A stretch of DNA of 64,000 nucleotides from Gemmatimonadota bacterium (lineage in GTDB: Bacteria > Gemmatimonadota > Gemmatimonadetes > Gemmatimonadales > Gemmatimonadaceae), in assembly GCA_021299375.1 (NCBI GenBank), contig JAJTGR010000011.1, positions 43,490-107,489 of the forward strand, given 5' to 3'. This document shows positions 23,665-53,501 of the stretch, one piece after another. Both the position numbers and the translations under genes were made by a program. How positions within the stretch are numbered: position 1 is the stretch's first letter; every line of letters begins with the position of its first letter. The notes below the pieces were generated by a model. It made no database searches and was not told the origin of the DNA. It worked only from the letters and a program-made list of their open reading frames with translations.

Positions 23665-25638
<1,974 letters not shown>

Positions 25639-27486: not shown

Positions 27487-27489
27487 CCT
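27461..27489 (+). promoter_or_regulatory. Possible sigma70 promoter for yggS
   Basis: TTGTGT (27461-66)-N17-TAACCT (27484-89); ATG lies 8 nt downstream. Confidence 0.3.
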
Positions 27490-27497
27490 TATGTGCT

Positions 27498-28193: not shown

Positions 28194-28210
28194 CGTAATC
28201 CGGATTCCGT

Positions 28211-29745: not shown

Positions 29746-29788
29746 TGCGTCACTGTCTCCCTCGCCGTTTCCTCCCGCTGCCCAGCTG

Positions 29789-33075
<3,287 letters not shown>

Positions 33076-33076
<1 letters not shown>

Positions 33077-33510: not shown

Positions 33511-33511
33511 C

Positions 33512-34051: not shown

Positions 34052-34058
34052 TCGTTGC

Positions 34059-34637: not shown

Positions 34638-35692
34638 CGCCGGCGGCCGATCGAGGGCGGCAGTTCGCGTTCACCATCGGTGAGGCCGAGGGCGCTGACG
34701 CCGGTGAGCGCCTGGACCTGCTGGTGGCGCGCATCGGCGAGCTGTCGCGCGCCCAAGCCGCCACGCTCATCGCCAACGGGCATGTGTTGGTGAGCGGCCG
34801 ACGGGAGCGGGCGTCGTACCGGGGCGAAACGGGCGACGCGGTGCAGGTCACCGTTCCGCCGCCGCCTGGGCGTGACATCGTCGCCGAGCAGATCCCGCTG
34901 GACGTTGTCTACGAGGACGAGCACCTGCTCGTCGTGGACAAACCAGCGGGCATGGTGGTGCATCCGGCGCCGGGGAACTGGTCCGGTACCCTCGTGAATG
35001 CCCTGCTGGGGCGCGGTGAGCCGCTGGCGGAAGGCGGCGGCGAGGAGCGGGCCGGACTCGTGCACCGGCTGGACAAGGACACGTCGGGGCTGCTGGTCGT
35101 GGCCAAGACCGATGCCTCGCACCGGGTACTCAGTACGGCGCTCGCTGCCCGTCAGGTGACGCGGCGCTATGTGGCGGTGTGCTGGGGGCATGTGAACGCC
35201 GACGCGATCACGGTCGACCAGCCGATCGGGCGCGATCCGCGAGACCGGACGCGCATGGCGATCGTCCCGACAGGGAAGGCCGCGCGGACGGATTTCGTGC
35301 GACTGGCCCGCTTCGACGCCGTCGACCTGTTGCGTGCCCACCTGCATTCGGGGCGGACGCACCAGATCCGGGTGCACTTGGCGTCGGTGGGGCATCCCGT
35401 CATCGGGGACGACACCTATGGCGGGGGTGGGGGGCGCCGGTTGGCGGCGCTCCCGCCGCGTCGCCACTTCCTCCATGCGGCTTGGCTCCGCTTCCGGCAC
35501 CCCGTGTCGGGGGCGGTGGTAGACCTGCGATCGCCCCTGCCGCGCGACCTGCGGCATTCGCTCGCCGTGCTCAGCGGCATGCCGGAGCTCGACACGCATG
35601 AGGACCCGCTGGATGTCTTTGGCTTCTATCGCACCGACGAGCCCGCAGCCGGCGCCCGGTCGGACGGTGCCCCCGATGCCCTTGCCGGCTGA
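34634..35692 (+). CDS. RluA/RluD family pseudouridine synthase
   Basis: S4-like N-terminus, VVDKPAGMVVHP, VHRLDKDTSG, SGRTHQIRVH, GDDTYG, FLHA. Confidence 0.93.
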   Translation: MTPAADRGRQFAFTIGEAEGADAGERLDLLVARIGELSRAQAATLIANGHVLVSGRRERASYRGETGDAVQVTVPPPPGRDIVAEQIPLDVVYEDEHLLVVDKPAGMVVHPAPGNWSGTLVNALLGRGEPLAEGGGEERAGLVHRLDKDTSGLLVVAKTDASHRVLSTALAARQVTRRYVAVCWGHVNADAITVDQPIGRDPRDRTRMAIVPTGKAARTDFVRLARFDAVDLLRAHLHSGRTHQIRVHLASVGHPVIGDDTYGGGGGRRLAALPPRRHFLHAAWLRFRHPVSGAVVDLRSPLPRDLRHSLAVLSGMPELDTHEDPLDVFGFYRTDEPAAGARSDGAPDALAG

Positions 35693-36092
35693 GCCAGCCG
35701 AGGGCGACGAGTCACCGCAGTGGCTCGTCGTGGAGGTGGGCCGGGTGCGTTACGGCATTCCGGTCGAGCAGGTGCGCGGCGTGGTGCGGCCGGGGGGGCT
35801 CCGCCCGGTCCCAGGGGCGCCCGTGCAGCAGGCCGGCATCGTGAACGTGCGAGGCGCAATCGTCACCGTCCTGGACCTGGCCGCCATGCAGTCGGGCACC
35901 CGTGCCGTGGCCCCGGGGTCGATCGTCCTGTTGCAGAACGGGGCCCGGCCGATCGGGCTGACCGTCGATGCGGTGCACGATGTCCGCGTGGTGGAGACCG
36001 GGGAGGCTGGTCGCGCCGGCGCCATTGTCCCGCTGGACGCCGTGGCACTGTGCGCCCGGCATCTGCACTCAGGCGAAGCGAGGGAACGGTGA
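35676..36092 (+). CDS. cheW: CheW coupling protein
   Basis: YGIPVEQV..VPGAP...GIVNVRGAIVTVLDL..IGLTVDAV; start overlaps the rluA end. Confidence 0.85.
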   Translation: MPLPAEPAEGDESPQWLVVEVGRVRYGIPVEQVRGVVRPGGLRPVPGAPVQQAGIVNVRGAIVTVLDLAAMQSGTRAVAPGSIVLLQNGARPIGLTVDAVHDVRVVETGEAGRAGAIVPLDAVALCARHLHSGEARER

Positions 36093-36454
36093 GCCGGACA
36101 GTACTCATCTGCGACGATGCGCTCTTCATGCGCACCATGGTCGGGGATATCCTCACTCAGGCGGGATTCGAGGTCGTGGGCGAGGCGGAAACCGGGGTGC
36201 AGGCGGTGGAGAAGTACAAGCATCTCCGCCCCGATCTCGTGACCATGGACATCGTGATGCCCGATCTGGGCGGGATCGACGCCGTGCGCGAAATCACGAA
36301 GCATGATCCGTCGGCACGCATCCTCATGTGCAGTGCCATGGGGCAGCAGGCGCTGGTGGTCGAAGCCATTCAGGCCGGGGCCAAGGACTTCGTCGTCAAG
36401 CCGTTCCAGCCCAGTCGCGTGCTGGAGGCGGTGACCCGCGTGCTCGCCGCCTGA
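36089..36454 (+). CDS. cheY: CheY response regulator (Bacillus/Thermotoga-like)
   Basis: ICDDALFMR, TMDIVMP (phospho-Asp), MCSAMGQQ, VVKPF; GTGA overlap. Confidence 0.93.
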   Translation: MSRTVLICDDALFMRTMVGDILTQAGFEVVGEAETGVQAVEKYKHLRPDLVTMDIVMPDLGGIDAVREITKHDPSARILMCSAMGQQALVVEAIQAGAKDFVVKPFQPSRVLEAVTRVLAA

Positions 36455-36479: not shown

Positions 36480-38429
36480 ATGGACGCGGCGCGCTACGCC
36501 GCGCTTTTTCGCACCGAGTCCGCCGAACAGCTCGCGGAGATCGACGCGGCGCTGCTGTTGCTTGAGCACGCGCCGCAGCGGACCGACGCGCCAGCGCTCA
36601 TCGCCACGCTGTTTCGTGGCATGCACACCATCAAGGGCATGGCGGCGGCGATGGGCTACGGCGCCGTGGAGCGGCTGGCTCACGCCCTCGAGTCGCGCTG
36701 TGAAGCGCTGCGCGCCGGCAGCGAGCCGCTCGATTCCGGTGTGCTGACGCTGCTCTTCGAAGCGACCGGGGCGATGCGGGAGGCGATCGCCGATGCCACG
36801 GCCGGTGAGCCGCGCGGGGAAACGGAGGCCCACAGCGCCGCCGTTACCGAGCGGCTCGTCCGCCACGGCCCTTCGCGGACGCCGGTACGTGCCGCCGCGG
36901 AGGCCCCGCTGCCGAGCGTCGGCGCGGTGCGACCCACCTCGGCCGCGGACGACTCACGGGACAGACCGGAGGTCGACACCGCGAATGTGCGCCATGTGGA
37001 CGTGCGGCTTACCGACGACTGCCCGCTCAAAGGGGTGCGCGCCATGCTGGTGCTGGCCCGGCTGCAGCAGGTGGGCCTCGTGCGCGGCGCGCATCCGGCG
37101 CAGGAGACGTGGCAGGATGACGGCTTCGACGGCCGCTTTCGCGTCACCCTCGTCACCGGGGCGACGGATGACGCCATCACGGAGGCGGCTCGGAGTGCCG
37201 GCGACGTCGAGCGCGTGCAGGTACGCCGGCCGGCGGTGGCCGCGGCCCGGTCCGCCGCCGTCGCGACGGTAACGGCGCCCGCGGCGCACACCGTCCGCAT
37301 CGACGCCGGCCGACTTGACACGCTGCTGGATCTCGTCGGCGAGCTGGTCATCACCCGCGACCGCCTGCTGCGCGCACTCGAAGCCACCGAGCATCCCGAT
37401 CGCGAGGTACTGCGCGCCGCCCGAGACTCGGCGCGGCTGGTGGGGGCGCTGGAGGAGGAAGTCCTGCAGGCACGGCTGCTGCCGGTGGGACAGGTCTTCG
37501 ACCGGTTTCCGCGTCTGGTGCGCGATCTGGCGCACGATCTCGGCAAGACCGTGCGTCTGGTGACGGAAGGGCGGGAGATCGAGCTCGATCGTTCCGTCCT
37601 CGACGCCATTGGTGAACTGCTGCTGCACCTGCTGCGGAACGCCATCGACCACGGCATCGAGGCGCCCGCCGTACGGCGGGCCGCCGGGAAACCGGCGGAG
37701 GGAGAACTGGTGCTGCGGGCCGCGCGCGAACGGACGTCGGTGGTCGTGCAGGTGCAGGACGATGGCCGCGGTATCGACCGCACCGAGGTCTTGCGCCGTG
37801 CACGGGACCTGGGACTGGTGCCTGCCGATGTCCAGGCGCTCGACGACGACCGCCTGCGTGCCGTGATCGCCCACCCCGGCTTCTCGACGGCGCGCGAAGT
37901 CACGCGGGTCTCGGGACGCGGTGTCGGCGTCGACGTGGTGAACACGCGGGTGCGGGCCCTCGGCGGCCAGATGGAGCTGGAGTCGATCGACGGGGTTGGC
38001 ACCGTCGTCACGCTGCGCCTGCCCATCACGCTCGCCATCACTCGGGCCCTGCTGGTGGAGGTCGCCGGCACGATCTTCGCCCTCCCGGCCGCGCATGTCG
38101 ATGAGGCGGTGGCGTATCACGCCACCCAACGGACGCGTCACGGCGGCGGTCCGGCCGTCACCATCCGCGACGAGATCCTTCCGCTGGTGGCCCTTGGCGA
38201 ACGGTTCGCCCTGTGCGAGTCGTCGTCGGAGGCGCGCGAGCAGCATCTGGCGATCGTCGAGAGTGGGGGGAAGCGGGCCGCCTTGCTCGTCGACGCGCTG
38301 GTGGCGCAGCAGGACATCGTCGTCAAGCCGCTCGACCTCGTCAGGGGGGCTGCGCCGTGGTTCAGCGGTGCCACCGTGCTCGGTGACGGCAGCCCCGCGC
38401 TCATCGTCGATGTCGGGAGTGTGGTATGA
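36480..38429 (+). CDS. cheA: CheA histidine kinase (Hpt, P2, dimerisation, HATPase, CheW-like domains)
   Basis: FRGMHTIKGMA, VRIDAGRLDTLLDLVGELVI, LRNAIDHGIE, DDGRGID, PGFST, SGRGVG.DVV, QQDIVVKPL. Confidence 0.95.
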   Translation: MDAARYAALFRTESAEQLAEIDAALLLLEHAPQRTDAPALIATLFRGMHTIKGMAAAMGYGAVERLAHALESRCEALRAGSEPLDSGVLTLLFEATGAMREAIADATAGEPRGETEAHSAAVTERLVRHGPSRTPVRAAAEAPLPSVGAVRPTSAADDSRDRPEVDTANVRHVDVRLTDDCPLKGVRAMLVLARLQQVGLVRGAHPAQETWQDDGFDGRFRVTLVTGATDDAITEAARSAGDVERVQVRRPAVAAARSAAVATVTAPAAHTVRIDAGRLDTLLDLVGELVITRDRLLRALEATEHPDREVLRAARDSARLVGALEEEVLQARLLPVGQVFDRFPRLVRDLAHDLGKTVRLVTEGREIELDRSVLDAIGELLLHLLRNAIDHGIEAPAVRRAAGKPAEGELVLRAARERTSVVVQVQDDGRGIDRTEVLRRARDLGLVPADVQALDDDRLRAVIAHPGFSTAREVTRVSGRGVGVDVVNTRVRALGGQMELESIDGVGTVVTLRLPITLAITRALLVEVAGTIFALPAAHVDEAVAYHATQRTRHGGGPAVTIRDEILPLVALGERFALCESSSEAREQHLAIVESGGKRAALLVDALVAQQDIVVKPLDLVRGAAPWFSGATVLGDGSPALIVDVGSVV

Positions 38430-39115
38430 ACGCAGACCCCCAGAACACCACCACCGTGCCGGCCTCAGATGGGCGTCCGGCGCGCGGAGCACCGATGGCA
38501 ACGATCCGGTCACTCAAGGCCATCCAACTCGACGCGCTACGCGAGACGGCGAACATCGGGGCCGGGCATGCGGCCACGGCGCTCTCGCAGCTGACCGGGA
38601 GCCCCATCCTCATCAAGGTGCCCGCCATCAGTGTTGCAAGCATCGAGGCGCTGCCCGTGCGCTTTGCGCCCGACGAGGAGCCGGTCGCAGCCGTGCTCCT
38701 GCAGATGCTCGGGGACCTCACCGGCCGCACCGTGCTGGTGTTCCCCAAACCCACCGTGCTGCGCCTTGCGGAGCTCATGCTGCGCCGGCCGGTCGGCTCC
38801 TCGGTGGCCTTCAGTGAGCTCGAGACCTCGGCGATCAAGGAACTGGGCAACATCCTGAGTGGCGCCTACATGAACGCGCTCAGCGACTTCCTCGGCATGC
38901 TGCTGCTGCCCTCCCCGCCCACGCTCGTGATCGACATGTCGACGGCGGTGCTGACGAGTGCGTTCGGCGAGTTTGCCGCCGACCCCGACGCCGTGCTGTG
39001 CGTGGAGAGCGAGTTCCTGATCACCGAGATGAACCAGACGCTGCGGGGCTTCTTCCTGATGTTGCCGGACCCGGCGTCGCTGCAGGTGATGCTGCGCGCG
39101 CTGCGCCTCGCCTGA
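38426..39115 (+). CDS. cheC: CheC phosphatase
   Basis: Two ExxN sites: DALRETANIGAGHAATALS and SAIKELGNIL. Confidence 0.92.
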   Translation: MNADPQNTTTVPASDGRPARGAPMATIRSLKAIQLDALRETANIGAGHAATALSQLTGSPILIKVPAISVASIEALPVRFAPDEEPVAAVLLQMLGDLTGRTVLVFPKPTVLRLAELMLRRPVGSSVAFSELETSAIKELGNILSGAYMNALSDFLGMLLLPSPPTLVIDMSTAVLTSAFGEFAADPDAVLCVESEFLITEMNQTLRGFFLMLPDPASLQVMLRALRLA

Positions 39116-41819: not shown

Positions 41820-42836
41820 ATGAGCATCGAGGGTCGGCTGCGTGACCTGAGCCTCATCGAGGTGCTGCAACTGCTGGCGCTCGGGCGGAAGACGGGGACA
41901 CTGCACTGCCATGCACCGCTGCAGGGCCGGTACGGGCGGCTGGTGTTCGATCAGGGCGCGATCCTTGATGCCGCGGTGACGGCATCGCCGGACGTGGCCT
42001 CAGGCCCGTGTCCCAACCGTCGCGCGGGCGACACCAAGGCGGTCGAGGATGCCGTGCTCGACGTGCTGCTCTGGCGTGACGGCACCTTCCGGTTCGCCGC
42101 CGGGGAGCCGACCGCGCCGACCACGGGCGTTCGTCTTGCAGTCGACCCGATTCTCATGGAGGGAGCGCTGCGCGCCGAGGGCTGGCGGCGCATCGAGGCG
42201 CGGGTGCCGCACGCGCGGGTCATTCCGACCTTCGTGGACATCGAGCCGCAGCAGCTGCCGCTGTTGCGCCTGACGCCACCGCAGTGGGAAATTCTGACCC
42301 GCGTCGATGGCCAGCGGGACCTCATGGCGCTTGCCGAGGCGATGCAGCGGGAGCTGACGGAGGTGGCGGAACTGGTGCACGACCTGATCGGCGCCGGGCT
42401 GCTGACGCTGCGCGAAGCGCAAGCGCCGCCGCGCCGAAATCCCACCCCGCCGGCCGGGCCGGCGTTCGTGCCCCAGACTGAACCGTCAACCGGACCCGTC
42501 GTGATGGTGACGCCGGCACCCGCCGATGACGAGGACGACGCAGAGGACGACGTCCACGAGGACTCGCTCTTCGACCCCATCGCCGTCGGCGCCGCGGTTG
42601 CGCCCGCCCCCGTTGAACCGTCCTTGCCTCGAGAGCAGGACGGGGCGGAGGCGCCGGCACTGCATGGGCCCACGTTGTGCCGGCACGGTGACGCACTCGC
42701 CCGCCGGGGTGACTTCCTGGGCGCCCTTGCGTACTGGAATGCCGCCTTGCGGGCGCCGGTGCCCGCAGCCGACGCGGAGCGCATCCGCGAGGTTGCGGCC
42801 CTCGCCGCGCGCCTGCACGCGCTGCTGCATCCGTAG
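41820..42836 (+). CDS. DUF4388 (PATAN-related) domain protein with HTH-like middle and acidic linker
   Basis: MSIEGRLRDLSLIEVLQLL...KTGTL..G.ILDA..LLW.DGTFRF; then WEILTRVDG....LAE; DDEDDAEDD. Confidence 0.8.
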   Translation: MSIEGRLRDLSLIEVLQLLALGRKTGTLHCHAPLQGRYGRLVFDQGAILDAAVTASPDVASGPCPNRRAGDTKAVEDAVLDVLLWRDGTFRFAAGEPTAPTTGVRLAVDPILMEGALRAEGWRRIEARVPHARVIPTFVDIEPQQLPLLRLTPPQWEILTRVDGQRDLMALAEAMQRELTEVAELVHDLIGAGLLTLREAQAPPRRNPTPPAGPAFVPQTEPSTGPVVMVTPAPADDEDDAEDDVHEDSLFDPIAVGAAVAPAPVEPSLPREQDGAEAPALHGPTLCRHGDALARRGDFLGALAYWNAALRAPVPAADAERIREVAALAARLHALLHP

Positions 42837-42906
42837 CGGCGCGCCTTCGAAATAGCAGGACACACCGGCGCAGTGGTCGGTGTGCGGCGAGGAGAGGAGC
42901 GGGCGT

Positions 42907-43599
42907 ATGCCCATTGTCGATCACGCCACGCGGCTGATCACCTGCAAGCTGGTCTACTACGGTCCGGGCCGGTCGGGAAAGACCACCAATCTGACCTACC
43001 TGCATTCGGCGCTGCCGAGCGGGCAGGTGGGCTCGCTCACGTCGCTGGCCACGCGTCGTGACCGCACGCTCTTCTTCGACTACCTGCCGGTGGACCTTGG
43101 CAGGGTGGGGGCCTATCAGGTCCGCTTTCAGATCTACACGGTGCCGGGGCAGCCGTACTACAAGTCCATCCGCCAGCTCGTGCTGCACGGCGCCGATGGC
43201 GTGGCGTTCGTGGCCGACAGCGAGCGGCACCGCTGGGACGACAACCTGGAGAGCCTGCAGGACATGCACGCCAACCTCGCCGAACACGGCGTCGACGCGC
43301 GCGACCTGCCCATCGTCATGCAGTACAACAAGCAGGACCTGCCGCCGTCCCTGGCGGCCAGCGTTGCCGAGCTGTCGGTGGCGCTGAACTTCCGCGGGGT
43401 GCCCGAATTTGCGGCCGATGCACTCACCGGGGCGGGCGTGTTCGACACCTTGCGGAGCCTCGGGGTGCGGGTGATGCGGCGACTGGGCGCCGACGAGGGC
43501 ACCGCGAGCGGTCGTCGTGCCGAGCGGGCGCTGCGCACACGGCTGAGTACGCCGGTGCTCGCCGGTGACGACCACGAACTGCCTGAGGTGGCCGCGTGA
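42907..43599 (+). CDS. mglA: MglA-like small GTPase
   Basis: KLVYYGPGRSGKTTNL, DRTLFFDY, YTVPGQ, GADGVAFVADS, QYNKQDL, GVFDTL. Confidence 0.88.
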   Translation: MPIVDHATRLITCKLVYYGPGRSGKTTNLTYLHSALPSGQVGSLTSLATRRDRTLFFDYLPVDLGRVGAYQVRFQIYTVPGQPYYKSIRQLVLHGADGVAFVADSERHRWDDNLESLQDMHANLAEHGVDARDLPIVMQYNKQDLPPSLAASVAELSVALNFRGVPEFAADALTGAGVFDTLRSLGVRVMRRLGADEGTASGRRAERALRTRLSTPVLAGDDHELPEVAA

Positions 43600-45332
43600 C
43601 ACCTGAGCAGCCGGTCGATCGTGCCCTACGTTTCGAAACGTTCGTGGTGGGCTCGTCGAACAGGCTCGCCACTTCGGCCGCCCGTGCTGTCGCCGAGGCG
43701 CCCGCGCAGTCGTACAACCCGCTGTTCGTGTACGGCGCCTCGGGGTGCGGCAAGACCCATCTGGTGGCCGCGATCGCCAACCGCGCCTCGGAGGTGCATC
43801 CCGCGTTGCGCGTGCGCTTCTCGTCCGGCGAGGAGGTTGCCGACCACCTGCATCGCGTCATTGCCAGCGGCCAACCGCAGCTGTTTCTCTCCGACTACCA
43901 GCCGGTCGACCTGCTCATCCTCGATGATGTGCAGTTCCTCACCGGCCAGCGCGAGACGCAGAGCGAGCTCTTGCGGTTGCTCAACGCGCTGTTGCAGGGC
44001 GGCCAGCAGCTCGTGCTCACCAGTGACCGACAGCCGTCGGAGATTGCCGACGTCGACCAGCGCCTCCTGTCGCGCCTCGCCGGGGGCCTGGTCGTCGATG
44101 TCGGAGCGCCGGACTTCGAGATGCGCCTCGCCATCCTGCGCAACGTGTCGCAGGCGCGCACCGTGACCTTCGCCGATGGGGTGCTCGAGGCCGTGGCCCG
44201 CCTGCCGTTCGCCAACGTGCGCGAGCTCAAGGGGGCGCTCAACAAGCTCACCGCATACCAGCAACTCGAGGGGATGCCCATCTCCGCTGGCGATGTGCGG
44301 GCGGTGCTGGGTGAGGGGGGGGCATCAGCGCTGCCCGAGCGCATCGAGGCGATCATCCCGGCCGGCACCGACTACGACGGCTTTCTGGCCGATGTGCTGC
44401 AGGAGGTCGAATTGCGCGTGGAGCCGTGGCGCGTACGGCTCGGCGAAGCCATTGCCCGGTGGAAGCCCGACGGCTGGAGCGTAGCGGTGCTCGAGCGGGC
44501 CATGGCCCTGCCCATGGCGCCGGACGTGGAGGGGTTGCTGCAGGCCTATGCCGGGGCCGTGGCCCATCTCCAGGGCCTCGAGGCCCAGGCGGCAACGATC
44601 GATCCGGCGCTGCGCGGGCATGCGGCGTTTCGCGACGTGGAGGCCATTCCGGCGGCCCAGCAGCTGGTGCAGCAGGCCATGGCCTCGGCGCTCCCGCTCC
44701 CGGCGCCGTCGCCGGCATTCACGCGCGCCTCGCTCGACGCGGGGCCGGAACACCAGTTGGTGCTCCGAGCCATCGATGCCGTGATCGACGAACCGGGGCA
44801 GCGCTACAACCCACTGCTGCTGCACGGGCCGAGTGGTAGCGGCAAGACGCACAGTGCCCACGCCATCGGCAACGCCATGCGCGCGCGCTGGCCCGACCGG
44901 ATCGTGGCGTGCCTCTCCGCCGCCGTCTTTGTGGAGGAGCTGATCGCCGCGATGCAGGAGGGCGGCACGGAACGGTGGCGGGGGCGCTATCGCCGCGCCG
45001 ATGTGTTCATCCTCGACGATATTCAGCTGCTCGAGGGCAAGGAGCGCACCCAGGAGGAGCTGTTTCACCTGTTCAATCACCTCGTGGGGCGCGGCAGCCA
45101 GGTCGTGCTCACCAGCGACCGCGCGCCTCGCACGCTGCTGGGGCTTGCCGACCGCCTGCGTTCGCGCTTCGAGGGAGGGCTGGTGGCTGCCTTGCCGGCG
45201 CGGGAGCGTCCGCGGCTCGAACAACTCATCGCCCGCGCTCCGGGCGAGCGTGACCACTTCTTCGAAGATCGCGAGAAGACGATCTGGGCGTGGCCCGACC
45301 TCGGTGGCCGGCTGATCGAGGAGTACCGATGA
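43596..45332 (+). CDS. Protein with two DnaA/Hda-type AAA+ modules and no DNA-binding domain IV
   Basis: Module 1: YNPLFVYGASGCGKTHL, LLILDDVQ, TSDRQP, RLLSRLAGG, NVRELKGAL. Module 2: YNPLLLHGPSGSGKTH, FILDDIQ, TSDRAP, RLRSRFEGG. Confidence 0.88.
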   Translation: MTPEQPVDRALRFETFVVGSSNRLATSAARAVAEAPAQSYNPLFVYGASGCGKTHLVAAIANRASEVHPALRVRFSSGEEVADHLHRVIASGQPQLFLSDYQPVDLLILDDVQFLTGQRETQSELLRLLNALLQGGQQLVLTSDRQPSEIADVDQRLLSRLAGGLVVDVGAPDFEMRLAILRNVSQARTVTFADGVLEAVARLPFANVRELKGALNKLTAYQQLEGMPISAGDVRAVLGEGGASALPERIEAIIPAGTDYDGFLADVLQEVELRVEPWRVRLGEAIARWKPDGWSVAVLERAMALPMAPDVEGLLQAYAGAVAHLQGLEAQAATIDPALRGHAAFRDVEAIPAAQQLVQQAMASALPLPAPSPAFTRASLDAGPEHQLVLRAIDAVIDEPGQRYNPLLLHGPSGSGKTHSAHAIGNAMRARWPDRIVACLSAAVFVEELIAAMQEGGTERWRGRYRRADVFILDDIQLLEGKERTQEELFHLFNHLVGRGSQVVLTSDRAPRTLLGLADRLRSRFEGGLVAALPARERPRLEQLIARAPGERDHFFEDREKTIWAWPDLGGRLIEEYR

Positions 45333-45345
45333 TCGGACCACGCTG

Positions 45346-47037
45346 ATGGCCATTCGCGGCAACCTGAGTGAAGCCAATCTCGCCGACGTGCTGCAACTGC
45401 TCGCGCTGGGCCAGAAGACCGGCTGCTTGAGCATGGCGCGCGAGGGCAGTTTTGGCAGCATCCACTTCGCCGATGGGCGCGTCGTGCACGCCGGCCTCGT
45501 CAACCGGCGCGACCGGCTCGGTGACCGGCTCGTGCGCCTTGGCGTGATCGACGCCGACGAGCTGGCTCGCCTGGCCGCCGAGGTGGCGCCGCAGGACGAG
45601 CGGGAACTCGCCCAGACGCTGCTCCGGTCGGGGCGCGTGGACCGCGACGTGCTGCTCACCGAGTACCGCGTGCACGTGGAGGAGGCTGTCTATCATCTCC
45701 TCTCGTGGACGCATGGCACCTTCACGTTCGAGCCCGATGACGAGGCGGTCCTCGAACCGCCGTTGCTCTCGGTGAGCGCGGACTCGCTGCTGCTGGAGGG
45801 GGCGCGCCGTGTCGACGAGTGGACGCTCATCGCCAAGAAGATCCCCAGTCTCGACCTTATCTTCGAGCTGGACGGACCGCGCCTCACCCAGCGCGAGACG
45901 CCGCTCAGCCCCGAGCAGGAGCGCCTCCTCCCATTGCTCGACGGGCTGCAGGACGTGCAGGCCATCATCGAGCGCTCGGGCCTCGGGGAGTTCGACGTGG
46001 GCAAGGCGTTGTACGGTCTGCTCACCGCCGGCTACGTGCAGCGCGTGGGGCGCAGTGCGGCGCGCCATCAACCGCCGCCGGAAAGCCGCGTGGCTGAGCA
46101 TCGCAACCTGGGCGTGGCCTTCTACAGGACGGGGTTGCTGGAGGAGGCGCAGCGCGAATTCCGGCGTGTGCTGGAGCTGCGCGACGCCGACGGCGTCGCC
46201 CGCTTTCACCTCGGGCTGGTGCAGGCGCGGCGCGGTGAGTGGCAGGCCGCCACGGACACCTTTCGCCGGGCCGCCAGCGAGCCGGACGCGCCGGTGGCGG
46301 TGTACCACAACCTTGCCTTCGCGCTCGAGCAGTGCGGTGACCTCGACGGTGCGCGCCAGGCGCTGGCAGACGCGCAGGCTCGCGCCGGCTCGACGCCCGA
46401 TCCGCGCATCGCGCTGTCCCGCGCGTTCCTGCACCTGCAGGCCGGTGCGATGCCGGAGGCTGACGCCGCCCTCGCCGAGGCGCGGGCGCATTGGGGCGCC
46501 CGGCAGCCGTCGGCGGCGTGGTTCCATGCTGCCGGCCTGTCGGCCGCACTGGCCGGGGACGCCGTCCGTGCCGCCGCGGTCCTCGAGGAAGGCCTCGCCG
46601 TCCATCCGCACGCCGTGGCGCTGCACAACAATCTCGCCGTGGTGCAGGAGCGATGTGGGAGCTACGAGCTGGCTGCCCGTACCCTCGAGCACGCGTTGCT
46701 CGCCGACGCCAGCTGTGCGCACCTGCACAAGAACCTCGGCGATTACCTCTACCGCGCGCAGCGTTACGACGAGGCGTTCGACGCCTTCGTTCGGGTGAGC
46801 CGGCTGGCGCCGGCACACGGCCCCGACGTCCATCTCAAGCGTGGCAACATCCATTACCGGCGGGGGGAGCTCGAGGAGGCGCGGCGCGCGTGGCAGGAGG
46901 CCCTGTCGCTTGATCCGGGCAACCGCATCGTGCAGGCGAACCTGTCGGCGCTGCCGCCGGCCCCCTTCCCACCGCTCTCGGCGACGACGCCGAGCGATGG
47001 CACCGTGGCCGTCTTCGCGGTGGCCTCGGAGACGTGA
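45346..47037 (+). CDS. DUF4388 domain + TPR repeat protein
   Basis: MAIRGNLSEANLADVLQLL...KTGCL..GRVVHA..LLSWTHGTFTF; C-terminal TPRs (HRNLGVAFY, YHNLAFA, LHNNLAV, LHKNLGDY). Confidence 0.85.
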   Translation: MAIRGNLSEANLADVLQLLALGQKTGCLSMAREGSFGSIHFADGRVVHAGLVNRRDRLGDRLVRLGVIDADELARLAAEVAPQDERELAQTLLRSGRVDRDVLLTEYRVHVEEAVYHLLSWTHGTFTFEPDDEAVLEPPLLSVSADSLLLEGARRVDEWTLIAKKIPSLDLIFELDGPRLTQRETPLSPEQERLLPLLDGLQDVQAIIERSGLGEFDVGKALYGLLTAGYVQRVGRSAARHQPPPESRVAEHRNLGVAFYRTGLLEEAQREFRRVLELRDADGVARFHLGLVQARRGEWQAATDTFRRAASEPDAPVAVYHNLAFALEQCGDLDGARQALADAQARAGSTPDPRIALSRAFLHLQAGAMPEADAALAEARAHWGARQPSAAWFHAAGLSAALAGDAVRAAAVLEEGLAVHPHAVALHNNLAVVQERCGSYELAARTLEHALLADASCAHLHKNLGDYLYRAQRYDEAFDAFVRVSRLAPAHGPDVHLKRGNIHYRRGELEEARRAWQEALSLDPGNRIVQANLSALPPAPFPPLSATTPSDGTVAVFAVASET

Positions 47038-47507
47038 CGCAGATCGTCGTGGGCATCTCCGAGCTCGCCGTGGCCGCCGGACAGGCGTCTCTCGTCACCC
47101 TTGGGCTGGGCTCCTGCGTGGCGATTGCGCTCCACGTCGCCGACCAGCAGGTAGGCGGCCTGGCGCACGTGCTGCTGCCACACGCGCTGCACACCGACAC
47201 GCCACCAGGCAAGGTGCCCGCCCTGGCGGTGCCGGCCATGGTCGCCCGCATGCGCGCATTGGGTGCGTCGGGGCGCATCGAGGCTCGGCTGGTGGGCGGG
47301 GCGTCGATGTTCGCGGCGCTGCTGCCAGTCGGCAGCGAAGGGCTGGGCGTCCGCAACGTGGTGGCGGCACGCACGGCCTGCCACGCGGCCGACGTCCCGG
47401 TCGTGGGGGAGCTCACCGGCGGTGAGACGGGACGCTCGGTGTTCTTTTGCGTGCAGTCCGGACGCCTGCAGGTGCGCACTGTGTGGGGTGACGATGTCGT
47501 CCTCTGA
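47034..47507 (+). CDS. cheD: CheD receptor glutamine deamidase
   Basis: TLGLGSCVAI (catalytic Cys), GLAHVLLP (His), LVGGASMF, GVRN, GG..GRSV. Confidence 0.85.
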   Translation: MTQIVVGISELAVAAGQASLVTLGLGSCVAIALHVADQQVGGLAHVLLPHALHTDTPPGKVPALAVPAMVARMRALGASGRIEARLVGGASMFAALLPVGSEGLGVRNVVAARTACHAADVPVVGELTGGETGRSVFFCVQSGRLQVRTVWGDDVVL

Positions 47508-48636
47508 CTCCGCCACACCGACGCGAGATCGGCGGCGGGTGCTCGTCGTCGACGACAGTGCCTTCATGCGCCGCCTCGTGAGCGATGTGGTACAGGAGAG
47601 CGGCGAGTTCGAGGTGGTGGGTACGGCCCGCGACGGGCACGATGCGCTCCGTCAGGTGGCGGCGCTCGATCCCGACCTCGTCACCCTGGACGTGGACATG
47701 CCCGGACTCGACGGGTTGGCGGCGCTCGAGGCCATCATGCGCACGCGTCCACGGCCGGTCGTGATGCTCAGCGCGGGCGGAAGCGACGGCGGCGTGGACG
47801 CGACGCTGCGCGCCCTCGAGCGCGGGGCCGTCGACTTCGTGCGCAAACCGTCAGGGGCCATCAGTCTCGACCTGGATGCGGTGCGTGATCAGCTGGTACA
47901 GGCGCTGCGGGCGGCTGCCACCGTGCATCTGTCGCACCCTACGGAGCGCCCTCGGGCTCCGGTCGCGTCGCGCGGCCCGGTGGTCATGGAGTCGGGTGCC
48001 CCGCTGATCGGGGGGCGCCATACACCCCAGCCCCCTGCGGCGGTGGTGTGCATTGCCGCCTCCACCGGTGGACCGGCCGCGCTGGCCCGTGTGGTACCCC
48101 TGCTGCCGGCGTGGTCGGACGTGGCAGTGCTCATCGTGCAGCACATGCCTCCGGGGTTCACGGCCAGCTTTGCGCGGCGGCTCGATGGGCAATCCCGCCT
48201 TCGGGTGGCCGAAGCCGTGCATGGCGAGCCGCTGCGAGCCGGGCATGCCTACGTGGCGCCGGGCGGGTTGCATCTGCTGGTGCAGGGCTCGGCGCAGGCC
48301 CCGCGGATTGCGCTCAGCGAGGAGGCGCCGCTTTGGGGGGTGCGGCCCGCCGCCGATCTCCTCTTCCGGTCGGTCGCGGCGCTATATGGCCCGCGCGCGC
48401 TCGGCGTGGTGATGACGGGAATGGGCTGCGACGGGGCTGAGGGACTGATGGCCGTGCGTACCGCCGGTGGCGGCGCCCTCGTTCAGGACGTCGCGTCATC
48501 GGTCATCCCGGGTATGCCGCAAGCGGCCGTGCGGCATGCCGGCGTCGATGCGGAAGTACCGCTCGAGGAACTGGCCGGTGCCATGGCGGCGCAGCTGGAA
48601 GCACGGCGCGCTGCCGGTTGGTGTGCATCCGCCTGA
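47494..48636 (+). CDS. cheB: CheB methylesterase with receiver domain
   Basis: VLVVDDSAFMR, TLDVDMP; catalytic ASTGG, VQHMP, TGMGCDG. Confidence 0.93.
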   Translation: MSSSDSATPTRDRRRVLVVDDSAFMRRLVSDVVQESGEFEVVGTARDGHDALRQVAALDPDLVTLDVDMPGLDGLAALEAIMRTRPRPVVMLSAGGSDGGVDATLRALERGAVDFVRKPSGAISLDLDAVRDQLVQALRAAATVHLSHPTERPRAPVASRGPVVMESGAPLIGGRHTPQPPAAVVCIAASTGGPAALARVVPLLPAWSDVAVLIVQHMPPGFTASFARRLDGQSRLRVAEAVHGEPLRAGHAYVAPGGLHLLVQGSAQAPRIALSEEAPLWGVRPAADLLFRSVAALYGPRALGVVMTGMGCDGAEGLMAVRTAGGGALVQDVASSVIPGMPQAAVRHAGVDAEVPLEELAGAMAAQLEARRAAGWCASA

Positions 48637-48655: not shown

Positions 48656-49120
48656 ATGACCAGCCCATTTCGATCGCTGGCGGGACCGGCCTCCCGCCGC
48701 CGCGCGCGGTCGGTGGTGGAGCGCTCCACCTTCGTGATTGTCGAGCTGCGGGGCGAGCGCTTTGCCCTGCCGGTCGAGCTCGTCGAACGCGTCGTGCGCA
48801 TGCCGGCAGGCTTGCGGCACGTGCGCGTGGCGGATCAGGACCTGGCGCTGATCGAAACCGGTTCGCTGCTGGGCCTCGCACCGGCCGCCGGCAAGGCGGC
48901 GCCGACCCGCACCCTGATCGTGCGGGACCGATCGCACTGGTGGGCGCTGGAGGTCGACGCCGTGATCGAGGTCTGTGCCGTCGAGACGGCGACGATCACG
49001 CCGTGTCCGGCAGACGCGTCGGGCACCCGCCGCGGGGCGCGCGTCGCTACGTTTGAACGGCCTGGCCAGACCATCGTGGTGCTCGATCTTCTTCGCCTCC
49101 TTCCGGATGTTGCGTCGTGA
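48656..49120 (+). CDS. Divergent CheW-like protein
   Basis: FVIVELRGERFALPVELVERV..WALEVDAVIEV..IVVLDL; lacks the G.xNxRG motif. Confidence 0.7.
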   Translation: MTSPFRSLAGPASRRRARSVVERSTFVIVELRGERFALPVELVERVVRMPAGLRHVRVADQDLALIETGSLLGLAPAAGKAAPTRTLIVRDRSHWWALEVDAVIEVCAVETATITPCPADASGTRRGARVATFERPGQTIVVLDLLRLLPDVAS

Positions 49121-50016
49121 CCGTCCCGGTCTCTCCGTCTGATCCTGCCGGTTCCTCGCTTGCCGCGCGCCTGGCGCGGCTGCAGGCGGTGCTCGCCGCA
49201 GCCGGTACGGACGCCGCGGAGTGGCTCCCGCCCGAGCGCCGTGCCCAGCTCAAGCAGGATATCATCGCGCTGTTTCGCGATGCCGAAGTCGCGCTGGCCG
49301 AGGCGCAGGCGGCCAAGGACGGGGCGAAGCGGCTGGCCGAGCAGTGGAAGCAGCTCAGTGCCGGCGGTGGGGAGCCGACGAAGCCCGCGTCGGCGTCTGG
49401 GCCGTCGCGGCTCGATCACCTCGGGGCGTCAACCTACCTCGAAAAGGGGTGGTCACTGATTTCCGTGGAGGACGCGGTCGGGGCCGAAGCGGCCCTGCGC
49501 CGGGCTCTGGAGCTGGTGCCCGGGCACCTCGAAGGCGAAGCGCTGCTCGGCTGGGCGCAGATGCTACGTGAGCAATTCGACGAGGCCCGCACGACCATCG
49601 AGGGCATTCTGGCACGAGACCCCAGTCATGCCCTCGCCCGCACCAATCTCGGGTACATCGCCCTGCGCGGCGGCCACCACGGCGAGGCCATCGAGCAGCT
49701 CACACAGGCGATTGCTGCGGGGACTGACCGCAAGGCCACGTTATACGCGCATCTCTACCTCGGGATGGTCTATCGCGAGCGCGAGATGTTCGATGACGCG
49801 GAGCAGTACTTCCGCAAGGCGCTGGCGCTCGGACCCAACTTGCTGCAAGCGTGGTACGAACTCGGGTTCACATTCTGGCGCAGCGGCCGAGGGGCCGAGG
49901 CGATGACGGCGTGGAAAACCGGCGCCGAGGCCAACAAGTTCAGTCCATGGGGCAAACGGTGCGGGGCCGTGGTGACCGCGGTGGAGCAGGGAGGCGAGCC
50001 GCCGGGCGACGCGTAG
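49117..50016 (+). CDS. N-terminal coiled coil + TPR repeat protein
   Basis: GTGA overlap; heptad segment QLKQDIIALFRDAE..AKRLAEQW; TPRs (ARTNLGYI, AHLYLGMVY, AWYELG). Confidence 0.82.
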   Translation: MTVPVSPSDPAGSSLAARLARLQAVLAAAGTDAAEWLPPERRAQLKQDIIALFRDAEVALAEAQAAKDGAKRLAEQWKQLSAGGGEPTKPASASGPSRLDHLGASTYLEKGWSLISVEDAVGAEAALRRALELVPGHLEGEALLGWAQMLREQFDEARTTIEGILARDPSHALARTNLGYIALRGGHHGEAIEQLTQAIAAGTDRKATLYAHLYLGMVYREREMFDDAEQYFRKALALGPNLLQAWYELGFTFWRSGRGAEAMTAWKTGAEANKFSPWGKRCGAVVTAVEQGGEPPGDA

Positions 50017-50030
50017 TCGGCGGTCGCCCC

Positions 50031-51233
50031 GTGGCGCCCTGGTGGGTCCTGCCGTTCCGCCATGCGGCTTTCCGGCTCGCGCCGTTTCGGTTCGCGTGGC
50101 TGCAGCTCGCGCGGTTCAGTCTCCTTCGGTCGCAGCTCGCGACGCCCACGCCAGCGCCCCTCCGCGTCCTCCTCGCCGCTGCACTCGTCACCGCGTTCGC
50201 CCTGACCCCCGTCCCGTCGTCCGCGAGGGCCCAGGTGGTCTCCATCCCCACCGCCGGCATCCGCCTCGACGGCGGCCGCTTCACCGTGGTGGCCGACCGG
50301 CAGGACGTGCGGTTGGCCACGGCCTTGCTGGCGGCGGCGCAGCGGCGCGACACCTTCCCGGGGTTGCCGCGGCCCCAGGCGCGGGTGCTGATCGCGGTGG
50401 CACCGGATGCCGAACGCTTTCGCGCCTGGGTCGGGCCGTTCGCCCCGGAATGGGGGGCGGCTATCGCTTTTCCCGACGAGCAACGCCTGGTGATGCAGGG
50501 TGGACGGGCCGGGTCGGACGCCGGCGATCCGCTGATCGTGCTGCGCCACGAACTGGCGCACCTGGCGCTCCACGAGGTCATGGGGCCGCTGCCGCCCCGC
50601 TGGTTCGACGAAGGCTACGCCAGTGTGGCCGCCGGGGAATTCACCCGCGAGCAGGCCTTTGAAACGTCGCTCGGCATGGTATGGCGCACACTGCCATCGC
50701 TGGACGCGCTCGAGCGCGGGTTTCGCGGTGGCGGCATGGAGGCCTCGTGGAGTTATGCCATGGCCCACCGCATCGTGAGTGAGCTCGACCAGCTGGGCGG
50801 CCCCATGGGGCTCACCAACCTGTTCACGTACTGGAAAGACAGCGGGTCGTTCGAGAAGGCGGTGCGCGGTGCCTACGGCATGACCGGCGACGCGTTCGAG
50901 AAGCACTGGCAGCAGCAGACGCGGCGCCGGTACGGCGCGCTGGCGCTGGTGACCAACGTGTCAGCGGCGGTCGGCCTGTTCGCCATCGTGCTGGTGCCGC
51001 TGTTCATCAGCCGGCGGCGGCGCGACCGGCGCAAGCTCGAGGCGATGCGCACCGCCGACGCCCTGCAGGAGGCGGCAGCTCGGGACAGTGCGTTGCAGGC
51101 CATGCTCGACGCCGGGAACCCCCAGGTGGGCTCAATCGACGAGTCCGCCGCGCCACCTCAGGTCACGTCCGGATCGGACACCCACGATGAACCCTTGCCC
51201 GGGGTGGCCGTGTCCCGGTATCCTGCGGCATGA
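50031..51233 (+). CDS. Peptidase MA-like (HExxH) domain protein, exported with a C-terminal membrane anchor
   Basis: Signal-like LRVLLAAALV..ARAQ; PEWGAAIA, LRHELAH, PRWFDEGYA; TM segment then RRRRDRRK. Start is uncertain. Confidence 0.75.
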   Translation: MAPWWVLPFRHAAFRLAPFRFAWLQLARFSLLRSQLATPTPAPLRVLLAAALVTAFALTPVPSSARAQVVSIPTAGIRLDGGRFTVVADRQDVRLATALLAAAQRRDTFPGLPRPQARVLIAVAPDAERFRAWVGPFAPEWGAAIAFPDEQRLVMQGGRAGSDAGDPLIVLRHELAHLALHEVMGPLPPRWFDEGYASVAAGEFTREQAFETSLGMVWRTLPSLDALERGFRGGGMEASWSYAMAHRIVSELDQLGGPMGLTNLFTYWKDSGSFEKAVRGAYGMTGDAFEKHWQQQTRRRYGALALVTNVSAAVGLFAIVLVPLFISRRRRDRRKLEAMRTADALQEAAARDSALQAMLDAGNPQVGSIDESAAPPQVTSGSDTHDEPLPGVAVSRYPAA

Positions 51234-51400: not shown

Positions 51401-51560
51401 CCGGTACGTTCGGCCGGCTCGTCTCGGCCTACGCATGCGCGAGCGACCAGGGATCAGCGCCCGCCGAACGTGACAATCCGGTTAAGTTCCGGCTCAGCCG
51501 GGAACCGCGCCCCCCCACCGCAGTAGTTTTTCCGTAGCTGGTGTGGGGCGGGCGCTCGCA

Positions 51561-51634
51561 GGGCGAATAGCTCAGCTGGTTAGAGCACCTGTCTTACACA
51601 CAGGGGGTCGGGGGTTCGAATCCCTCTTCGCCCA
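51561..51634 (+). tRNA. tRNA-Val (anticodon TAC); CCA not encoded
   Basis: Acceptor stem GGGCGAA/TTCGCCC plus discriminator A; D arm agctcagctggttagagc; anticodon stem cctgt-ctTACac-acagg; T loop GTTCGAATC. Confidence 0.97.
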
Positions 51635-51800
51635 TGACGTCCAGACCTCGCCGGCCGCCCGCGTGGTTGCCATGCGAAGTCCAGACTCGCAGTTTATGCA
51701 TTCCCCCCCCAGACCCGCGTGGCTTGCGCACGGCCAACGGGTGGTCTCATCTCCCCGGCAACGGGGACCCACGGTTTCCGGTGCGGAGGTTACGACATTG

Positions 51801-53501
51801 ATGTCACGGCATTTCCAGGCGATCGCCGGGTTCGGATTGGCTCTCGGTGGCACCCTCGTGCCTTCGGTGGCCTCGGCCCAGTACAACCGGGTCCCCGACC
51901 CCAACGCGACGCGCGTCATGGTCGCCGTGTTCCGCTCCGGCGAGAAGGGTCTGGGGGTACAGGCCGCCGACGCGGTGCGCTCGCGCATGACCAGCGAGTT
52001 CCCGTTCAAGCAGGTCTACGTGCTGCCCAAGCAGGACCTCACGGCCACGCTGGAGGCTTCGGGCTTCCCGGTCACGGAAGCGCTCGAGCCGCACGATCAG
52101 AAGGCGCTGGCCACGCTGCTCCGCGCCGATGAGTACATCACCGGCACCGTCACCAAGGCCGAAGCGGGCGTGAAGCTTGAGGCGGCCCTCGTGCTCGCCC
52201 GTGACAACTCGCTCGTGCAGCCGCTCGGCACCTACGAGGCCAAGAGCGTGGGCGACGCCTCGAAGCTCGTCTCCACCGAGCTCAAGGAAGCCCGCAAGCA
52301 GCTCGAGTTCGAGAAGAAGTGCACCAACGCCGGCCGGCAGGGCCAGTACGACGCGGCCATTGCCGCCGCCAAAGAGGGCATCGCGGCGTACCCCAAGGCC
52401 ACACTGGTGCGCATCTGCTGGGCCAACGTGCTCATCACGCAGAAGGCGCCGGCAGAGCAGATGCTCGACATCTCCAAGCAGATCGTCGACATCGACCCCA
52501 AGAGCCGTCCGGGCCTCGCCATCCTCGCCCAGGCCTACCGCGACACCAAGCAGAGCGACTCGGCGGTGGTGACGCTCACCCGCCTGCTCTCCACCGACCC
52601 GAAGAACCCGCGCCTGCAGAAGGACGTGGTGGAAGCGCTGGCGGTGCTGGCGAACCCGAAGGTGGCGCGTCCCGTGATCGACGAAGCCGTACAGGCCAAC
52701 CCGGGCGATCCGGAGCTGCTGCGCACGCGCTGGCTCATCCTGCTTTCCACGCGCGATTTCAAGGAGGCGTTCGCGCAGGGTGACGAGCTGGTAAAGCTCG
52801 ATACGGCGTTCGCCGACACGACCTACTTCATCCGGACGGCGGCGGCCTATGCGGCCGACAGCCAGTTCCAGAAGTCGGCGGAAACGGCCTCCAAGGGCGT
52901 GGCCAAGTTCCCGGGGCACCCGGGGCTGACCTATTCGCAGATCGTTGCCCTCCGCCAGGCAGGCCAGAATCAGCAGGCGCTCGAGGCGCTCGAGAAGGCC
53001 ATCGCCGCCAAGGTGGTGGTCGAGAACGGTGGCTTCCTGCGCCTGACGCTGCTCAAGGAGCTCAATCGCACCGCCGAGGTCCTGCCCGCCGCCAAGGCAT
53101 TGATCGCCGCTGGCGACACCTCGACCGCGACCCGCGCCATGGTACTCCAGATGGGCAACGAGCAGCGCACGGCTGCGTCGAAGTCGAACGCGCCCGATGA
53201 CTACAAGCTGGCCATCGAGACGCTCAAGTACGCGGACGAGGTGACGACGGGTGCCAGCAAGGCGCAGGCGCAGTTCCTTCTCGGGGCGACCTACGTTGCG
53301 TTCGGCCAGGTGAAGCTGCAGGAGTCGCAGGCTGCGAAGGCCTGTGCCCCGGCCAAGGAAGCGAAGGACATGTTCGTCGAAGCGCAGATCATGCTGCCGA
53401 AGGGCGGGTCGTTTGCGCCCGACGCGATGCGCCAGCTCATGGGAGCGGTGATGCAGCTCGATCCGTCGGCCGACCAGTTCATCAAGGCCTTCTGCAAGTA
53501 A
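51801..53501 (+). CDS. Secreted TPR-containing protein
   Basis: GGAGGT upstream; signal peptide ending ASA-Q; helical TPR-like repeats; strong G/C third-position bias. TTG 51798 is an alternative start. Confidence 0.75.
   Translation: MSRHFQAIAGFGLALGGTLVPSVASAQYNRVPDPNATRVMVAVFRSGEKGLGVQAADAVRSRMTSEFPFKQVYVLPKQDLTATLEASGFPVTEALEPHDQKALATLLRADEYITGTVTKAEAGVKLEAALVLARDNSLVQPLGTYEAKSVGDASKLVSTELKEARKQLEFEKKCTNAGRQGQYDAAIAAAKEGIAAYPKATLVRICWANVLITQKAPAEQMLDISKQIVDIDPKSRPGLAILAQAYRDTKQSDSAVVTLTRLLSTDPKNPRLQKDVVEALAVLANPKVARPVIDEAVQANPGDPELLRTRWLILLSTRDFKEAFAQGDELVKLDTAFADTTYFIRTAAAYAADSQFQKSAETASKGVAKFPGHPGLTYSQIVALRQAGQNQQALEALEKAIAAKVVVENGGFLRLTLLKELNRTAEVLPAAKALIAAGDTSTATRAMVLQMGNEQRTAASKSNAPDDYKLAIETLKYADEVTTGASKAQAQFLLGATYVAFGQVKLQESQAAKACAPAKEAKDMFVEAQIMLPKGGSFAPDAMRQLMGAVMQLDPSADQFIKAFCK

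Follow-up and report, generated by a model that had tools for sequence, protein, structure and literature searches.

What does a protein built from two copies of the ATPase core of the replication initiator DnaA do in an operon of polarity and chemosensory genes? The question is raised by an open reading frame (ORF) in a stretch of 64,000 nucleotides from a Gemmatimonadota bacterium (assembly GCA_021299375.1, contig JAJTGR010000011.1), which is called the window in the following. The ORF (43596-45332, + strand) exists as proposed by the first-pass annotation, has a GTG start and encodes 578 amino acids; its product, a tandem DnaA-type AAA+ ATPase, is labelled dDnaA here. The architecture of dDnaA, the conservation of its motifs, the loss of DnaA domains I and IV, the synteny of the locus and the fusions of related modules are established below. 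Because dDnaA is kept across the Gemmatimonadota inside a cluster of polarity and chemosensory genes and lacks the parts required for DNA recognition, it is probably an uncharacterised signalling switch and not a replication initiator.

Two DnaA-type modules without a DNA-recognition domain

The first-pass annotation had read two ATPase modules from the sequence, and a motif script recovered the signatures that it had named, each at precisely the position given. They comprise the Walker A motifs GASGCGKT (43734-43757) and GPSGSGKT (44826-44849), YNPL (residues 40-43 and 404-407), Walker B ILDD (residues 108-111 and 472-475), the sensor I motif TSDR (residues 142-145 and 506-509) and the box VII arginine motifs RLLSRL (residues 156-161) and RLRSRF (residues 520-525). 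The sensor II lid NVRELKGAL (residues 207-215) is confined to module 1, the C-terminal tail FFEDREKTIWAWPDLGGRLIEEYR occupies residues 555-578, and the GTGA overlap between the dDnaA start and the stop of the upstream mglA gene is real.

A profile search, which had been suggested as a check, matched the Pfam family Bac_DnaA (PF00308) in two stretches with an E value of 1.4e-96. A local alignment of one half of dDnaA with the other scores 255 under BLOSUM62. The best solved relative of module 1 is domain III of Bacillus subtilis DnaA (E 1.8e-50, query residues 5-231), and its identity to canonical DnaA domain III is 38-44%. The best fold matches found by Foldseek were all DnaA, and module 1 superposes on domain III of structure 8bv3 with a template modelling (TM) score of 0.93 and a root mean square deviation (rmsd) of 1.6 A. 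With this superposition, the Bac_DnaA E value and the domain III match, the observation of tandem DnaA modules is far beyond chance.

An AlphaFold2 model of dDnaA, based on a 45-sequence family alignment, has a mean predicted local distance difference test (pLDDT) score of 89 and a predicted TM score (pTM) of 0.52, and thus the single domains are reliable, whereas the mutual arrangement of the modules is not. Module 1 contains an insertion of two helices (residues 78-90 and 95-101) between strands 73-77 and 106-110, and module 2 contains the equivalent helices (442-454 and 458-466) between strands 437-441 and 470-474. A two-helix insertion between beta2 and beta3 is typical of the initiator clade of AAA+ proteins (DnaA/ORC/Cdc6/DnaC), to which, according to the model, both modules belong. 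Module 2 ends in a lone lid helix (residues 538-547). The helical domain that follows the linker between the modules continues into module 2 without a confidence break, has the consensus W-R..EAI-RW..EG..T-RLE ... FRDP-R..EAE-LL and reaches a pLDDT of 86.5 when modelled alone. It has no fold match in the PDB (best E 3.8), and residues 241-388 and 529-578 match no Pfam family at E<=10.

The absence of DnaA domain I and of the helix-turn-helix (HTH) domain IV, which had also been claimed, is borne out by Pfam, AlphaFold2 and Foldseek in agreement. Neither Bac_DnaA_C (PF08299) nor DnaA_N is among the best 25 of 33 Pfam families matched at E<=0.01, and module 1 already starts at residue 8. Structure prediction, carried out as a check for a hidden domain IV, did not find one; the helical domain between the modules was considered as a degenerate or cryptic domain IV and ruled out, as it has neither a Pfam nor a PDB fold match. 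Without domains I and IV, dDnaA cannot recognise DnaA boxes.

Compared with DnaA (PF00308; 8bv3, 2z4r, 2hcb, 3r8f), both modules have the fold, Walker A and B, sensor I, the box VII arginine and the initiator-specific motif, whereas the lid with a sensor II arginine is limited to module 1. The differences are two modules per chain, the lack of domain I (helicase contact and self-interaction) and of the DnaA-box HTH domain IV, the presence of a novel helical domain and a conserved C-terminal tail, and a location in a polarity/chemosensory operon instead of beside dnaN or oriC.

It should be noted that automated annotation tells a different story. The NCBIfam model TIGR00362 gives dDnaA a summed score of 427, above the DnaA cut-off of 343.9, because the scores of the two modules add up, and this summed score explains the misnaming of family members as DnaA. 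Several relatives are called 'chromosomal replication initiator protein' by JGI/IMG and UniRef (P0011, P0019, P0049, P0122, P0208), and NCBI names the closest ones 'DnaA ATPase domain-containing protein' or 'DnaA/Hda family protein'. Databases thus list this uncharacterised family under names that are generic or wrong, and searches of the literature turned up no account of dDnaA. The TIGR00362 score and the initiator names would fit dDnaA as the real DnaA of the genome or a broken copy of it, and a match to IstB_IS21 (E 6.9e-24) would fit a helper ATPase of the IS21 type. All of these identities are highly improbable, as domains I and IV are missing by sequence and by fold, the IstB model NF038214 is matched with a score of 110.6 compared with a cut-off of 200, and no transposase is adjacent. 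Furthermore, the conservation of architecture and synteny across the phylum, with a relative in 579 genomes, rules out a pseudogene or a mobile element. A separate canonical dnaA is presumably present in the genomes that carry dDnaA. A role in a defence system was also considered and rejected, since PADLOC yielded generic P-loop matches only.

A probable ancient duplication and an unequal pair of ATP sites

Relatives were collected by a genome scan of one genome per species, with a 12-sequence alignment as the query, which led to the 579 genomes mentioned above. The best 80 are labelled Gemmatimonadota with the exception of a metagenome-assembled genome (MAG) labelled 'Myxococcales', two 'bacterium' MAGs and 'Bacterium HR33'. 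The tandem ATPase of the Myxococcales-labelled MAG (L069, DASWGQ010000203.1) is 46% identical to dDnaA and lies in a Gemmatimonadales-type gene order; the label may be a binning or labelling error. The nearest named relatives belong to Gemmatimonas (G. phototrophica, 76% identity; G. groenlandica, 73%), and identities within the family range from 76% down to about 30%, the level to which an exhaustive search of 50%-identity representatives recovered many two-module clusters. The window sequence is present in lake and freshwater metagenomes.

Conservation of single residues was read from a 45-sequence family alignment (A1). In module 1, the Walker A lysine K53 and the Walker B residue D110 are invariant (45/45), D111 is present in 43, the sensor II arginine R209 in 42 and the arginine finger R160 in 32 of the 45 sequences. 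In module 2, the corresponding counts are 36/45 for K417 (Walker A), 37/45 for D474 (Walker B) and 36/45 for the arginine finger R524, and one sub-family has ruined P-loops such as 'SPDGAAAR' or 'SESPEKT'. The degeneration of Walker A and B of module 2 in several lineages, against the invariance of module 1, indicates that, of the two ATP sites, the one in module 2 can be dispensed with.

The missing lid of module 2 has to be viewed differently. The description of module 2 as lidless is true of dDnaA itself but not of the family, since homologues of about 650 amino acids in alignment A1 have a full lid with an S-x-R motif after module 2. Thus, the lidless state is a derived loss in a Gemmatimonas-level clade and a few other members.

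Two AAA+ modules per polypeptide, one conserved and one more degenerate, are also found in type II AAA+ proteins (p97/Cdc48, NSF), and this is a common division of labour in tandem AAA+ enzymes. However, those proteins belong to the classic hexameric-ring clade and not to the initiator clade, and the two-module superposition by Foldseek was poor (rmsd > 19 A), so that a p97-like double ring was rejected. The initiator-specific motif leads to the prediction of open or spiral assemblies and not of closed rings.

The modules themselves are consistent, in their sequences, with one ancient internal duplication before the family diversified. In a neighbour-joining tree, the largest pure clades comprised 38/45 sequences of module 1, 34/45 of module 2 and 13/14 canonical DnaAs; the tree is crude and was used solely for the question whether the duplication predates the diversification of the family. 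Degenerate module 2 sequences were drawn towards DnaA in this tree, probably by long-branch attraction. On average, module 1 is 36% and module 2 is 32% identical to DnaA. Among the closest single-module hits retrieved, those with a name belong to Chloroflexota and Planctomycetota, and P0165 clearly stems from an organism of low GC content.

Module 2 has retained residues that raise the question of a nucleic acid ligand. A K-E-R-T-Q segment follows its Walker B motif (R484 in 27/45 and Q486 in 35/45 sequences), and a W-R-x-R-Y-R helix is well conserved (W461 in 42/45, R462 and R464 in 38/45). From work on Aquifex aeolicus and Escherichia coli, these correspond to regions with which DnaA contacts single-stranded DNA. 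dDnaA might thus form ATP-dependent, DnaA-like filaments on nucleic acid and tether the polarity complex to the nucleoid or to single-stranded DNA. This is rather improbable, as module 1 does not have these residues, a double-stranded DNA-binding domain that could nucleate a filament is missing, and both regions also serve DnaA self-association and are therefore not diagnostic of DNA binding.

The C-terminal tail is conserved in the family (E560 42/45, K561 40/45, W566 43/45, P567 40/45, E575 39/45). As it is not docked onto the protein in the monomer model, the tail is likely to be a peptide motif that binds a partner. The acidic end is reminiscent of the C-terminal peptides that bind to TPR domains, and by analogy the partner may be a TPR protein.

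A conserved operon of polarity and chemosensory genes

The genes around dDnaA in the window all lie on the + strand and are tightly packed. The mid-block order is CheW, CheY, CheA, CheC/X, an 895-aa TPR protein, PATAN, MglA, dDnaA and PATAN-TPR (Table 1). The window proteins were compared with 80 related loci by tblastn, and the surroundings of dDnaA turned out to be highly conserved: the PATAN-TPR gene is directly downstream in 71/71 loci, MglA is directly upstream in 65/69, CheA is upstream in 47/49 and Peptidase_MA is downstream in 44/45. These counts qualify the suggestion that dDnaA is a repurposed switch or scaffold coupled to MglA. The DnaA-clade ATPase without domains I and IV, the signalling operon and the mglA overlap stand, but MglA is not an invariant partner, in contrast to the PATAN-TPR protein.

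By its alignment, the window GTPase is a true homologue of Myxococcus xanthus MglA, with the YTVPGQ and GKT motifs visible, and it is predicted from the gene overlap to be translationally coupled to dDnaA. It has a C-terminal extension of about 35 residues past the end of the M. xanthus MglA alignment. The Che core in the window consists of CheA, CheW and CheY together with CheC/X, CheD, CheB and a CheW-like protein.

The deep-branching loci L081 and L085, with family members of 33-46% identity, contain the same operon together with CheR, which comes after the PATAN-TPR gene, and one to three Roadblock genes, which are placed between the PATAN-TPR gene and MglA. A TPR/Roadblock and a Roadblock gene lie between PATAN and mglA at 7807-9397 of L081 and 7585-9337 of L085, and the equivalent part of the window is 41820-43599. 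A comparison of these gene orders indicates that the Gemmatimonas-level clade has lost both genes.

Other loci are smaller. In a Gemmatimonas MAG (L003, 74% identity), rluD is followed by dDnaA, the whole che/MglA block is missing and PATAN-TPR is kept. In L086, which belongs to the sub-family with a degenerate module 2, the order is ileS, rluD, Roadblock, dDnaA, PATAN/TPR and Peptidase_MA, with neither MglA nor che genes; L083 and L084 resemble it, and the PATAN gene starts right after the ATPase gene. L050 also has Roadblock directly upstream of dDnaA and no MglA. From these minimal loci it follows that the conserved core consists of the tandem ATPase and PATAN-TPR, usually with Roadblock and/or MglA, and that Che is an outer layer.

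The same loci might be taken to mean that dDnaA is a Roadblock-regulated AAA+ machine independent of MglA, to which MglA and Che were added later. Roadblock immediately precedes dDnaA in L083, L086 and L050, with gaps of 1 to about 85 nucleotides (nt), and L003 shows that dDnaA and PATAN-TPR can outlast the che/MglA block. Nevertheless, the clade of the window has kept MglA and has no Roadblock gene in the 64 kb, and in the MglA-less proteins inspected (P0195, P0263 and the protein of L050) the P-loop of module 2 is degenerate or has a K-to-R exchange, so that they may work differently. We therefore regard an MglA-independent machine as unlikely.

DnaA-type modules have also been fused to signalling domains in proteins that are not of the same family as dDnaA. 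P0221 combines two DnaA modules with a C-terminal receiver (REC) domain, and its locus also contains phosphorelay genes of the Hpt and REC types; P0227 joins TPR repeats to one DnaA module; and P0182 and P0186 are giants with an MshEN domain and DnaA modules, whose locus also encodes a prepilin peptidase and a PilB-like MshEN-T2SSE ATPase. The connection to two-component, TPR and pilus-type signalling parts points away from replication. At L087, the receiver-fused tandem gene (9249-11465) is flanked by two Hpt, two REC, a hybrid histidine kinase and an HD-domain response regulator gene. The MshEN-type locus L088 is on a JGI metagenome contig; its genes at 1738-16490 include the prepilin peptidase and PilB-like MshEN-T2SSE ATPase genes and also encode a 921-aa protein with MshEN and two DnaA modules, a 421-aa MshEN protein, a 246-aa single-module DnaA-like protein and a 1876-aa protein with MshEN and a DnaA module. 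Judged by its gene content, this locus seems to re-use DnaA-type modules in a pilus or secretion-type system.

Neighbourhoods and fusions also bear on the idea that dDnaA acts on the true DnaA of the cell. Like Hda, it might cap or join filaments of ATP-bound DnaA via its arginine fingers and couple replication initiation to the polarity/chemosensory state and the division genes. Hda/HdaA, an AAA+ protein with an arginine finger, likewise derives from DnaA, has no DNA-binding domain and is a regulator instead of an initiator. Both box VII arginines of dDnaA are retained at the frequencies given above, as is the initiator-specific motif, and these are the surfaces through which DnaA associates with itself; module 1 is close to DnaA domain III, and the block adjoins divIVA and the division-cell wall (dcw) cluster. 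However, Hda has one module only, is about 230-250 aa long and carries a beta-clamp motif at its N-terminus, whereas dDnaA is a tandem protein in another neighbourhood. The Hda model TIGR03420 scores 144.9, below its cut-off of 194.8, and HdaA models score 45-49 compared with a cut-off of about 300. No clamp-binding motif (QL[SD]LF-like) is conserved at the N-terminus in alignment A1, and the unconserved QPQLFL sequence of residues 93-98 is part of a helix. The conserved neighbours are all signalling or polarity genes with zero replication genes among them, and related modules are fused to REC, TPR and MshEN domains. A DnaA regulator is thus an unlikely alternative.

The remaining genes of the window frame the block. 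Upstream, the order is a yggS-like gene, divIVA, a gene of the purine-nucleoside-phosphorylase family, ileS, two lspA genes and rluD, followed by CheW. Downstream of PATAN-TPR it is CheD, CheB, CheW-like, TPR, Peptidase_MA_2, TPR, mraW, ftsI, murE, murF and mraY. The flanks extend from yggS-like to rluD (27471-35692) and from mraW to mraY (53744-61340), and the polarity/che block is inserted between these two gene groups, both of which are neighbours of the division-cell wall cluster in other bacteria. The gap before mraW is 243 bp and leaves no room for mraZ. The signal peptidase II genes (lspA) are in tandem (33302-34051 and 34059-34637), as in L003, and a small ORF upstream of the pair (33004-33510) matches a DksA/TraR-like zinc-finger ORF of L003. 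As called, the Peptidase_MA_2 ORF shares 165 nt with the TPR gene before it. Close to the N-terminus of its product is a hydrophobic stretch that resembles a signal peptide, LRVLLAAALVTAFALTPVPSSARAQ, which suggests that the protein may be exported and that the true start is probably later than 49851.

Table 1. Coordinates in the window of dDnaA, its parts and the neighbouring genes of the block (res, residues of dDnaA)
Feature	Position	Strand	Basis
dDnaA, tandem DnaA-type AAA+ ATPase	43596..45332	+	578 aa, GTG start; two Bac_DnaA stretches; homologues cover 99-100%
Module 1, complete DnaA domain III: AAA+ core, two-helix initiator-specific motif, lid with sensor II arginine	43617..44309, res 8-238	+	sequence match, Foldseek, residue conservation
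Flexible linker, length varies across family	44319..44414, res 242-273	+	pLDDT < 50; gap-rich alignment columns
Family-specific helical domain	44415..44690, res 274-365	+	pLDDT > 90; no Pfam match E<=10; no PDB fold match
Module 2: DnaA-type AAA+ core, initiator-specific motif, Walker A/B, sensor I, box VII arginine; single lid helix, no sensor II	44724..45236, res 377-547	+	second Bac_DnaA stretch, secondary structure
C-terminal tail, conserved EK-x-[VI]W-x-WP...R[LIV][IV]EE	45258..45329, res 555-578	+	residue conservation; low pLDDT, not docked in cis
CheW	35598-36092	+	Pfam
CheY	36089-36454	+	ORF translation
CheA	36480-38429	+	Pfam
CheC/CheX	38426-39115	+	Pfam
Large TPR protein, 895 aa	39131..41818	+	TPR families; position conserved in related loci
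Second PATAN (DUF4388) protein	41820..42836	+	PF14332 E 1.9e-19; start refined
MglA-family Ras-like GTPase	42907..43599	+	E 3.4e-60, full length, to M. xanthus MglA 5ymx
PATAN (DUF4388)-TPR protein	45346..47037	+	PF14332 E 2.8e-32 and TPRs
CheD	47034-47507	+	Pfam; start refined
CheB	47494-48636	+	Pfam; start refined
CheW-like	48656-49120	+	Pfam; start refined
TPR protein	49117-50016	+	Pfam
Peptidase_MA_2 protein	ORF 49851-51233	+	Pfam
TPR protein, last of conserved block, just before mraW	51543-53501	+	Pfam

A possible assembly switch for polarity

What, then, might dDnaA do in this operon? The absence of domains I and IV together with a place in a signalling operon, and not beside dnaN or oriC, makes a repurposed switch or scaffold the best reading. 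Specifically, we propose, with a probability of roughly 55%, that dDnaA does not initiate replication but serves as an ATP-dependent assembly switch or scaffold in a polarity module of PATAN, Roadblock and MglA proteins, which is fed by a Che pathway. The ATP-driven assembly, the target of the tail and the output in cell polarity are proposed by analogy to DnaA filaments and from the gene neighbourhood.

In this proposal, module 1 would be the conserved sensor of the nucleotide and the site of hydrolysis, with Walker A/B, sensor I and the sensor II lid. Module 2 would be chiefly regulatory or structural, would supply an arginine finger and would provide an intra- or intermolecular head-to-tail interface like that of DnaA filaments. 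The nucleotide state would set the oligomeric or conformational state of dDnaA, and the C-terminal tail would recruit a TPR or PATAN partner. The PATAN-TPR protein would be the constant partner, Roadblock/MglB and MglA would be frequent partners, and a Che-type pathway (CheA/W/Y/B/C/D) would feed the module in most lineages.

The MglA homologue, the PATAN proteins and the Che-type pathway in one locus, with Roadblock/MglB in deeper lineages, are features shared with MglA/MglB polarity systems. The differences are that all components here are in one operon and that the window clade has no local MglB. MglA/MglB-PATAN neighbourhoods are known as polarity-related, and Group 1 MglA has been placed in the Gemmatimonadetes, with no mention of a DnaA-like ATPase (PMC4316618). 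The literature searched contained no MglA system with a DnaA-like AAA+ ATPase. To our knowledge, no such system has been described.

Several points weigh against an assembly switch for polarity. The relative placement of the modules is not reliably predicted (pTM 0.52), so the head-to-tail arrangement is an analogy to DnaA filaments. Module 2 has kept the DnaA-like K-E-R-T-Q segment after Walker B, and nucleic acid is a possible ligand. Parts of the signalling pathway were also not found in the window: tblastn found neither CheR nor, with six Roadblock proteins of related loci as queries, Roadblock/MglB in the 64 kb, and no signal domain of a methyl-accepting chemotaxis protein was found among the genes scanned, which are those outside 17238-25638 and up to 61340. 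None of the window sequence was found in the RNA runs linked to the metagenome samples. In addition, ileS-lspA-rluD and the dcw cluster flank the block in every case, and phylogenetic inertia within a single phylum could account for some of the conserved synteny.

A broader and more speculative idea is that polar or pilus-type machinery has repeatedly taken up DnaA-type modules as cytoplasmic assembly switches, in the dDnaA family, in the receiver-fused proteins and in the MshEN-fused giants. In Gemmatimonadota, Roadblock/LC7 proteins might then regulate the tandem AAA+ protein directly, as a bacterial counterpart of Roadblock and dynein, and open DnaA-like filaments might serve as a polarity landmark that links Che and MglA to the cell-division genes. 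We consider this conceivable but unlikely as a whole.

We know of almost no jobs of initiator-clade AAA+ proteins outside replication and transposition (DnaA, Hda, DnaC/IstB, ORC/Cdc6). The naming of dDnaA as an initiator can mislead the prediction of origins or the counting of dnaA genes in Gemmatimonadota genomes and MAGs. If the proposed assembly switch is true, a phylum-wide tandem ATPase connected with PATAN, Roadblock, MglA and Che proteins would be a new type of component of bacterial polarity modules, and it would offer a tractable case of the re-use of the ATP switch of a replication initiator.

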